Shown here piece by piece: positions 17,374-18,504 of a stretch of 64,000 nt of DNA. The DNA lies in the IMG/VR virus record IMGVR_UViG_3300000313_000054. One strand, written 5' to 3'. The notes below the pieces were generated by a model, which saw only the letters and a program-made list of their open reading frames with translations, had not been told where the DNA came from and did not search any database. The stretch is from a virus. Each line of letters opens with the position of its first letter. Positions within the stretch are counted from its first letter, which is position 1. Made by a program: the position numbers and the translations under genes.

Positions 17374-17931
17374 ATGGGATTATTCGATAATTTTAAGACA
17401 GCAAAAGAGAAAGAATTAAGTAAAGATGTTTCTAGTTGGGCAACTCCTAATGTTCATAGAGAGACGGTATTAGAACCACAGAAAAATGTTAATGATAAAG
17501 ATAATGAATTTCCACAATTTCCGGTAAAAAAGTCTTGTAAAAGTGATATTGCTGATGAAATAAAAACATCAAGAGTAGAATATGACATTGATGAACCACC
17601 TATTCCCGTTAGAGAAGAAGATGTGCCAAAAAAGAAAAATAATTCAGGTGGTTTGATAATTGTAGTTTTAATACTTGCGGTAGGAGCTTATTTTGCGATT
17701 ACGAATGGTTGGTTTGGTAATCATCAACCCTATCAAGTAGAAGGAACAGTCTATTCAGTAGTGTATGAAAAATCCCATACAGAAGCGAGTGCAATAATTC
17801 CAGATAAATATTATGTAGAGATTTCATTCGTTGATAAGAACGGTAATGCAAAAGTTTTAAAATGGGATACTACTTTTGAAGAATATGCAAAGTATCAAGT
17901 TGGTAGTAAGATAAATGTAACTGTGAAATGA
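17374..17931 (+). CDS. membrane-anchored protein (central TM)
   Basis: 185 aa. Confidence 0.55.
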   Translation: MGLFDNFKTAKEKELSKDVSSWATPNVHRETVLEPQKNVNDKDNEFPQFPVKKSCKSDIADEIKTSRVEYDIDEPPIPVREEDVPKKKNNSGGLIIVVLILAVGAYFAITNGWFGNHQPYQVEGTVYSVVYEKSHTEASAIIPDKYYVEISFVDKNGNAKVLKWDTTFEEYAKYQVGSKINVTVK

Positions 17932-18125
17932 AAAGAAAATTTAGTTGGCTTTGTAATATAATAAGTATTTACGGTTCTATATTAGGTGGGTTATTTTTTA
18001 TAATCATTTGTATAATAGAACCTGATAAGATAGGTGTAAAAATATTCGATGCGTTAATCGGTATTAGTTTAATAATGATAGGAGTATTTGGGTTAAAATT
18101 TAATGTTAGATCAAAAAGAGATTAA
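17928..18125 (+). CDS. small two-TM membrane protein overlapping the start of the HicB-like gene
   Basis: 65 aa; 23-nt overlap with next ORF. Confidence 0.5.
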   Translation: MKRKFSWLCNIISIYGSILGGLFFIIICIIEPDKIGVKIFDALIGISLIMIGVFGLKFNVRSKRD

Positions 18126-18504
18126 ACAAAAAGTTGAATATTATATGAATTTACCTTATACCATGACGATTAAGCGTCATGACGATCAGGGCGTCTACTA
18201 TCTGGCTGGTTTCGTGGAATTGCCGGATTTATTTATGGTTGGTTCGACAGAAGAGTTAGCTATAAAAGAGTTATCGGTTGTAAAACCAGAATATTTTGAA
18301 GAATGTATCAAGCGTGGTTTTAAAATTCCCATACCAGTTGAATCTCAAAAATATAGCGGTGTGCTCAATTTTAGAATGCCAAAAGATTTACACCGTAACA
18401 TTGCTATATTAGCTGATAAAAAGGGTGTTAGTATTAACAAATATTTAGTAGATGTTGTATCAAAATCTGTAGAATGGGACTGGCTTTTTGAAGGGAAAAA
18501 TTAA
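18103..18504 (+). CDS. hicB: HicB-like antitoxin (N-terminal HicB/UPF0150 fold, C-terminal RHH)
   Basis: YTMTIKRHDDQGVYYLAGFVELPDLFMVGSTEELAIKEL and C-terminal SGVLNFRMPKDLHRNIAILADKKGVSINKYLVDVV fit the HicB pattern; true start may be the Met at 18145. Confidence 0.6.
   Translation: MLDQKEIKQKVEYYMNLPYTMTIKRHDDQGVYYLAGFVELPDLFMVGSTEELAIKELSVVKPEYFEECIKRGFKIPIPVESQKYSGVLNFRMPKDLHRNIAILADKKGVSINKYLVDVVSKSVEWDWLFEGKN

Follow-up and report, generated by a model that had tools for sequence, protein, structure and literature searches.

A hicB gene without its hicA in an AT-rich mobile element or virus, and its relation to hicAB cassettes

Here we present an analysis of a solitary hicB gene in a stretch of DNA of 64,000 nucleotides (the window), which is recorded in IMG/VR as the virus IMGVR_UViG_3300000313_000054. 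The gene encodes a protein of 133 amino acids (aa), and its start lies within the end of a 65-aa open reading frame (ORF) with two predicted transmembrane (TM) helices, called the TM ORF below. Based on profile searches and on a comparison with the hicAB cassettes of its relatives, the gene is read as the antitoxin half of a toxin-antitoxin (TA) cassette whose toxin gene has been lost. The features of the locus and the truncated hicA genes of the closest relatives are collected in Table 1.

The hicB gene and the missing toxin

On the whole, several profile comparisons agree in recognising the product as HicB. It matches Pfam PF05534 (HicB) over residues 74-117 with an E-value of 5.2e-10 and 39.5 bits (cut-off 21), and PHROG 497 ('HicB-like') with an E-value of 3.1e-8 across residues 8-120; PHROG 9151 is also matched, and Mnt and Arc, two repressors with a ribbon-helix-helix (RHH) fold, are matched by residues 87-125. 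The protein has 21 homologues with 44-75% identity, several of them named HicB at source. The profile of these 21 is aligned by hhalign with HicB of Paenibacillus phage Hayley at a probability of 99.5% (E 2.6e-23, residues 8-120), and the Hayley protein carries the N-terminal HicB domain PF15919 together with UPF0150 and PF05534; PF15919 itself has no direct match to the window protein. All 29 residues that are invariant in the clade are kept. The RHH domain is intact, with its β-strand NFRM conserved, and the last 10 residues form a rewritten C-terminal tail that differs from all relatives. By these matches the gene encodes a genuine HicB antitoxin. The initial annotation, made from the letters of the DNA, had called it HicB-like with a C-terminal RHH domain, and the PF05534, PHROG 497 and Mnt/Arc matches bear this out; it had also proposed that a failure of an HHpred-type comparison would speak against HicB, and the hhalign result speaks for it.

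The HicB fold that the initial annotation saw in the N-terminal part stands by profile homology and is not confirmed by structure prediction. The AlphaFold2 (AF2) model built from the 21-sequence alignment has a predicted local distance difference test score (pLDDT) of 54, which is low confidence, and Foldseek with this model finds weak RHH matches only, so that we dropped the model as evidence for this domain. The predicted order of secondary-structure elements is compatible with a β-β-β-α-β fold, although not decisive. Because the model is poor, the assignment of the N-terminal domain is made by profile homology.

The start of the gene is placed at ATG 18103, since no start codon precedes it in frame and all homologues conserve, as protein, the residues ahead of Met15 (KQKVEYYMNLPY). 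Therefore the overlap with the upstream ORF, whose stop sits 23 nt within hicB, is real, just as initially described for a 65-aa double-TM ORF.

Table 1. Coordinates of the hicB locus and of the hicA stubs in its closest relatives
Feature	Location	Strand	Basis or remark
Solo hicB, 133 aa	18103..18504	+	PF05534, PHROG 497/9151, Mnt/Arc RHH, hhalign to Hayley HicB
HicB N-terminal HicA-binding (partial RNase H-like) domain	~residues 8-80 (nt 18124-18342)	+	
HicB C-terminal RHH domain	~residues 85-123 (nt 18355-18471)	+	
TM ORF, 65-aa ORFan, two predicted TM helices	17928..18125	+	ORF list, coding statistics, hydropathy
185-aa ORFan, one TM segment, translationally coupled to the TM ORF	17374..17931	+	no homologues; DNA repeats D1, D8
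Promoter-like site TTGACA-16-GATAAT ahead of the SPFH/Band 7 gene	14481..14508	+	consensus scan, not above chance as a class
Palindrome TACTAA-AA-TTAGTA	18521..18534	.	17 nt past the hicB stop; resembles the inner part of the L003 operator
L010 hicA stub	L010:465-585		HicB 75% identity; HicA profile positions 45-73
L005 hicA stub	L005:1468-1593		HicB 71% identity; HicA profile positions 50-74
L026 hicA stub	L026:87-200		HicB 71% identity; HicA profile positions 64-74

The locus has no hicA adjacent to hicB in its own operon. Pfam HicA_toxin has no match in the plus-strand ORFs of 40-150 aa or in the 31 larger ORFs of the window. The HicA-like partner profile of the clade (see below) and a bona fide phage HicA find nothing in six frames over the window and the 4.4 kb past its end (best E 0.47-0.66), which together make up the ~68 kb readable for this search. 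No remnant of hicA is detected in or around the TM ORF by tblastn, by a six-frame hidden Markov model (HMM) search, or by local DNA alignment against shuffles. One ORF, 33392-33604, gives weak matches to two HicA queries but is rejected with an hhalign probability of 0.6%. The earlier description of HicB as an orphan with no HicA nearby is thus supported by Pfam and tblastn, and by searches of six frames with profiles and with phmmer. A hicA elsewhere on the element, which would have contradicted it, is not found in the readable sequence. As for the operator of the family, no pattern matches are found in the window and its best position weight matrix (PWM) hit is not beyond Markov controls. 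Since both toxin and operator are missing, the locus is not a complete hicAB module.

Most genes of the window have a clear Shine-Dalgarno (SD) sequence, whereas hicB and the TM ORF have none. The promoter-like site at 14481-14508 is a possible start of a co-directional, tightly packed gene string, 14567-18504, which ends with hicB and is called an operon from its spacing only.

hicAB cassettes of the relatives

The relatives of the window gene lie mostly on metagenome contigs of Dehalococcoidia/Chloroflexi type, and their cassettes have a constant order: a sigma-70-like promoter with an overlapping palindromic operator, then a divergent hicA, and then hicB, which starts 5-95 nt (typically 5-39 nt) after hicA or overlaps its end. 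In a census made with profiles of both proteins, a full-length hicA is located directly upstream of hicB in L003/L004, L006, L009, all 14 metagenome loci L012-L025 and phage Hayley, and the same layout is seen in gene calls on three further contigs. For L003, L006 and L009 the gene directly 5' of hicB encodes 74-76 aa (e.g. L003:4765-4995).

The partner family as a whole has 127 proteins of 72-76 aa at E ≤ 0.01, mostly from contigs of Dehalococcoidia/Chloroflexi type and all of them 'hypothetical' (protein alignment A4). Three members searched against Pfam and NCBIfam have no match, and for 120 members none is precomputed. The family profile is aligned by hhalign over its full length with the 74-aa HicA of Hayley at 95.6% (E 1.1e-8), with the catalytic-type histidine aligned (GGSHPKA vs KGSHHHF), and the Hayley HicA scores 40.6 bits on PF07927. 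The AF2 model of the family, with a pLDDT of 93, has an extra N-terminal helix followed by an α-β-β-β-α fold; across 53 sequences, R12, G31, H39 and Y61 do not vary. Judged by profile and predicted fold, the family consists of divergent HicA proteins that carry an additional helix at the N-terminus. Because this HicA has no Pfam or NCBIfam match, hicB genes of the clade would be wrongly called orphans by automatic annotation, and many of its hicAB loci would look 'orphan' although they are not.

In all intact cassettes a palindrome is found between a TTGACA-like −35 element and hicA, of the types TAGTAyC-N6-GrTACTA and GATATC-ATATAT-GATATC, and by analogy with known systems (PMC10865869) it is expected to be the HicB operator. 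The closest relatives with DNA available, L010, L005 and L026, carry hicA stubs truncated at the 5' end with differing breakpoints. The palindrome of the operator directly abuts the stub in L010 and L005, showing that these two are internal deletions of the N-terminal half of the toxin, including the histidine, with promoter, operator and hicB kept. The toxin thus appears to have been deleted repeatedly in the relatives, with promoter, operator and hicB retained.

The window goes further than these. It has lost the GAGGAGG-type SD for hicB that lies, in the relatives, within the 3' end of hicA; homology to them at the DNA level sets in within the first hicB codons and fades ~50 nt past the stop, and the breakpoint lies at or just before the hicB ATG. 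The hicB gene has 33% G+C, fully adjusted to the element, vs 40-46% in the relatives. Taken together, the loci compared form a small evolutionary series, from the intact cassette, through an internal hicA deletion with its operator and then a shorter stub, to complete loss of hicA with hicB in a foreign operon. By this comparison the window stands at the end of the series, and its hicB is the antitoxin gene left over from a classical hicAB cassette, the lost partner being the divergent HicA.

Several known systems can be set beside the window. The Class 4 hicAB modules, with hicA upstream and an RHH-type HicB (6G26 from Burkholderia pseudomallei and 5YRZ from Streptococcus pneumoniae; PMC10865869), have the same HicB architecture, and the relatives of the window gene show their full layout, including the palindromic operator overlapping the promoter. 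In the window, by contrast, hicA and operator are missing, and hicB closes an unrelated operon without having its own promoter. The hicAB genes of Paenibacillus larvae phages (Hayley, Vegas and ~28 others) encode a HicB 36% identical over 88% of the length and a 74-aa HicA of the same extended type as the partner family, here on phage genomes; in these phages, unlike the window, hicB is overlapped by an intact hicA whose product Pfam recognises. The toxin-deleted cassettes L010, L005 and L026, with HicB identities of 71-75%, have hicA inactivated in each, but retain the 3' hicA stub with the SD of hicB, and L010 and L005 also the native operator and promoter, whereas the window has none of these.

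Two further features of the relatives are recorded here. A ~60-nt segment after hicB is conserved in L003, L005 and L010, which are otherwise different (e.g. L010:1001-1060; containing TTCACCTATTCAGCAAAGTTGTCATCCTGAGGAGAACGAAGTTCGACGTGAGGA), with a faint echo in the window; this segment could be a repeat element or mark where the cassette ends. In addition, an SPP1-type portal gene is located nearby on an L005-like contig.

Neighbouring ORFs and the element

The TM ORF probably represents a real gene. It starts in an ATGA junction, where its ATG shares nucleotides with the stop codon TGA of the 185-aa ORF upstream. Its hydropathy profile has two peaks, with Kyte-Doolittle means over 19 residues of 2.5 and 2.1, and K/R residues flank them. 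Its codon log-likelihood is positive in frame, as in the neighbouring genes, and negative in both shifted frames; when the 171-nt gap is shuffled, just 0.5% of the shuffles have a stop-free frame, and two independent gene callers call the ORF. No homologue other than itself is found among 1.84e9 representative proteins, and it belongs to no family in Pfam, PHROG, NCBIfam or PADLOC. Its DNA has no similarity to the hicA regions of the relatives, and no such ORF is present upstream in any relative of the window HicB examined. A polymorphism test gives no information, the other contigs with the region being 100% identical.

The 185-aa ORF, in turn, finds only itself among 5.8e9 proteins, and was abandoned as an anchor to related elements since it has no homologues. 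Its sequence is a mosaic whose parts recur in neighbouring small ORFs (repeats D1 and D8). The TM ORF and this coupled mosaic gene being both unique, the TM ORF is placed in a lineage-specific block of small membrane-protein genes; in these searches it is a unique neighbour of hicB rather than a conserved partner, with its position as the sole link to HicB. PADLOC defence-system models find nothing in ten neighbouring proteins.

The small ORFs at 16451-17931 are paralogous mosaics downstream of a 609-aa SPFH/Band 7 protein, all of them ORFans and several with one TM segment. Among their repeats, 16969-17055 and 17360-17446 are 75% identical over 87 nt (MGxFDNFK...KDVSxW), and 16629-16656 and 17504-17531 are 89% identical (EFPQFPVKK). 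Between the stop of the SPFH gene and the next ORF there is a hairpin with 15-bp arms at 16408-16441 (GTTAGGGGATTAGGT / ACTTAGTCCCCTAAC), with no clear U-run.

On the 3' side of hicB, an intergenic region of 300 nt forms a module boundary. It holds a strong promoter-like site at 18693-18721 (TTGACA-17-TATATT with an upstream TG) and, ~30 nt past it, an 11-bp GC-containing hairpin with a U-run at 18751-18790 (−20.4 kcal/mol, z −3.2). Site and hairpin (18693-18795) could give a small RNA of ~60-70 nt, or a terminated leader before the genes at 18801, 18939 and 19132; the region has no Rfam match. The ORF at 19132-26892 encodes 2586 aa with many degenerate repeats of ~35 aa (…LTKEYILEQ…) and a Pro/Ser/Thr-rich tract, and has no family match.

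Overall, the window is AT-rich (~33% G+C) with a strong positive GC skew, and essentially all ORFs of at least 90 aa are on the plus strand. It has three tRNA genes at 5585-6719. The second tRNA-Ser (CGA) of 99 nt, 6621-6719, lies beside tRNA-Ser (TGA) and downstream of tRNA-Thr, and may owe its length to a long variable arm or an insertion; no other Rfam families are found in the window. A NUMOD3 homing endonuclease, a DnaJ protein, the SPFH/Band 7 protein and several very large proteins with no family assignment are also encoded. A sugar-modification cluster at 38380-53521 includes NeuB, a DegT aminotransferase, two epimerase/dehydratases, a nucleotidyl transferase and two family 2 glycosyltransferases (GT2), as well as two radical SAM/SPASM proteins, a thiamine pyrophosphate (TPP) enzyme and a cupin; a cluster of this nucleotide-sugar or nonulosonic-acid type is unusual cargo for a mobile element, whatever its type. 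Past the window end (L028:10457-15026, ~window 63,800-68,400) the coding strand turns to minus, with genes of 543, 263, 192 and 185 aa without family matches, and this strand switch is a convergent module boundary of the element.

Besides the single coding strand, the tRNAs, the homing endonuclease and the richness in ORFans are traits of mobile elements, and no Borg-like tandem repeats are detected in the window. Since most genes have a clear SD, the host is probably an SD-using bacterium. The same sequence, 100% identical, is found on contigs from SRR404151, JGI 3300001213 and JGI 3300075153, and in the last of these metagenomes the element co-occurs with intact cassettes whose HicB is 68-75% identical to that of the window.

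Possible roles of the antitoxin

The antitoxin could still be useful to an element that has no toxin. In HicAB systems, helix α1 of HicB packs on the β-sheet of HicA and blocks the RNase, and the RHH or helix-turn-helix (HTH) domain dimerises and represses the operon (PMC10865869); HicA modules have been argued to act against phages, and solitary hicB genes are known (PMC10865869). Among the latter, those in defence islands such as that of Methanosarcina barkeri are likewise without an adjacent hicA, but are chromosomal and beside other TA loci (PMC10865869), whereas the window gene lies in an operon of ORFan membrane proteins on an AT-rich element. Counter-defence by phage solo antitoxins has been described for AdfN, a DarG-like protein (PMC11825919), and a passage of PMC10367356, citing Kurata et al. 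2022, states it for PanA-type antitoxins. The window gene would follow the same logic as AdfN, the PanA-type antitoxins and Dmd of T4, all toxin-less antitoxins on mobile or viral genomes. These belong to families other than HicB, and the window HicB is known from its sequence, on an element whose viral nature is unproven. Dmd is a solo antitoxin which T4 uses as counter-defence.

We consider, with middling confidence, that the window HicB acts as a free HicA-neutralising antitoxin of the mobile element. The element has lost hicA, the operator and the SD in the 3' end of hicA, and hicB is now the last cistron of a string of unique small membrane-protein genes. With its start buried 23 nt within the preceding ORF, HicB would be made by translational coupling or re-initiation from that ORF and would dimerise through the RHH domain. 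Its conserved N-terminal domain may then bind and block HicA-family RNases of the host or of co-resident elements, and the element would thereby be protected from HicA-mediated growth arrest or abortive infection. The likely targets would be HicA proteins of the clade's own family, which are present in the intact cassettes of JGI 3300075153.

The distribution of changes in the protein bears on this. At positions conserved in at least 90% of the clade, the window protein has changed at 2 of 46 in the toxin-binding domain, while for the RHH domain the count is 6 of 26 (Fisher p 0.023), and the ratio of nonsynonymous to synonymous substitution rates (dN/dS) of hicB is 0.17 vs its nearest relative L010. 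Because the toxin-binding domain is conserved, the DNA-binding domain is drifting and no cognate operator is found, a free HicA neutraliser is the simplest reading.

Several points weigh against it. With no SD or promoter of its own, hicB may be poorly expressed. The 8 deviations of the protein at conserved positions, vs 0-3 in most relatives, also match an early relaxation of selection, and the dN/dS, taken over a long branch, also includes time spent inside an intact cassette. The structural model of HicB, as mentioned above, is of low confidence. As for the element, no capsid, portal or terminase families are detected in the window with PHROG and Pfam, and neither DNA nor protein relatives of it are found in INPHARED or IMG/VR; it is an uncharacterised AT-rich mobile element or virus, for which the label 'phage' is not established. 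A matching HicA in the host is circumstantial, the only hint of it being the co-occurrence with intact cassettes in JGI 3300075153.

Among the alternatives, the best placed is that HicB has been domesticated as a regulator, kept for its RHH domain to repress or time genes of the element, such as the downstream module that starts at 18693-19132, with toxin binding irrelevant. We regard this as unlikely, though worth weighing. The intact RHH domain with its conserved strand fits it, and so does the position of hicB at a module boundary, ahead of the intergenic promoter-like site and terminator hairpin; yet the RHH domain is the drifted part of the protein and the toxin-binding domain the constant one. 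The palindrome past hicB was at first attractive as its operator, sharing arms and spacing with the inner operator of L003, the nearest intact cassette, and an exact match to its pattern is expected only 0.02 times per window, a statistic picked after the site had been seen. However, it lacks both GTAC cores, which are conserved in all 12 operators compared, and with unbiased PWMs it ranks only 71-440 among 64,000 positions; an unbiased count with up to 3 mismatches gives 1 found vs 0.99 expected. By the PWM ranking and the Markov controls the palindrome is downgraded, and we do not accept it as an operator.

Somewhat less probable again is that hicB is a passenger, brought in with a cassette or left over from one, no longer useful and not yet decayed. 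The loss of promoter, operator and SD, the start buried in another ORF, the deviations and the rewritten tail, and the fully ameliorated G+C content would all be expected of such a remnant. Against this, the ORF is intact at full length, the clade-invariant residues are all retained, the dN/dS is 0.17, and the changes are split non-randomly between the two domains; the amelioration to 33% G+C, for its part, implies long residence without disruption.

The initial annotation had offered, beside a decoy antitoxin, a pair in which the small membrane peptide is the toxic partner. In this case the 65-aa peptide would have become, after the loss of hicA, a membrane-damaging toxin or holin-like trigger, and the coupled HicB would restrain it or its expression; if true, HicB would have been recruited to a membrane-acting toxin that is not an RNase. 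The 23-nt overlap and the missing SD do make HicB synthesis depend on translation of the TM ORF, itself a probable gene with two TM helices. Nevertheless, as the TM ORF has no homologue among 1.84e9 proteins, the pair has no comparative support: no conserved pairing is seen, and every relative of the window HicB pairs with a HicA or a HicA stub. The known neutralisation surface of HicB packs on the HicA β-sheet and not on a membrane helix (PMC10865869), the TM ORF is as tightly coupled to the upstream ORFan membrane genes, and a deletion or insertion with its end at the hicB ATG would leave such an overlap by accident. We hold the pair to be quite improbable, and the membrane-toxin reading to be unsupported. 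Finally, a split system with the cognate hicA elsewhere on the element and acting in trans is the least probable of all; the ~68 kb inspected may not be the whole element, but neither the two HicA queries in six frames nor Pfam find it there and the closest relatives show hicA deleted, not relocated.

The reading of the window HicB as an orphan antitoxin directed against HicA is compatible with all findings; it is plausible, and is favoured over the membrane-toxin reading. To a specialist none of this would be very surprising. If true, it would add one more mobile element that keeps only the antidote half of a TA system, and would extend the idea of counter-defence by solo antitoxins to the HicAB family.

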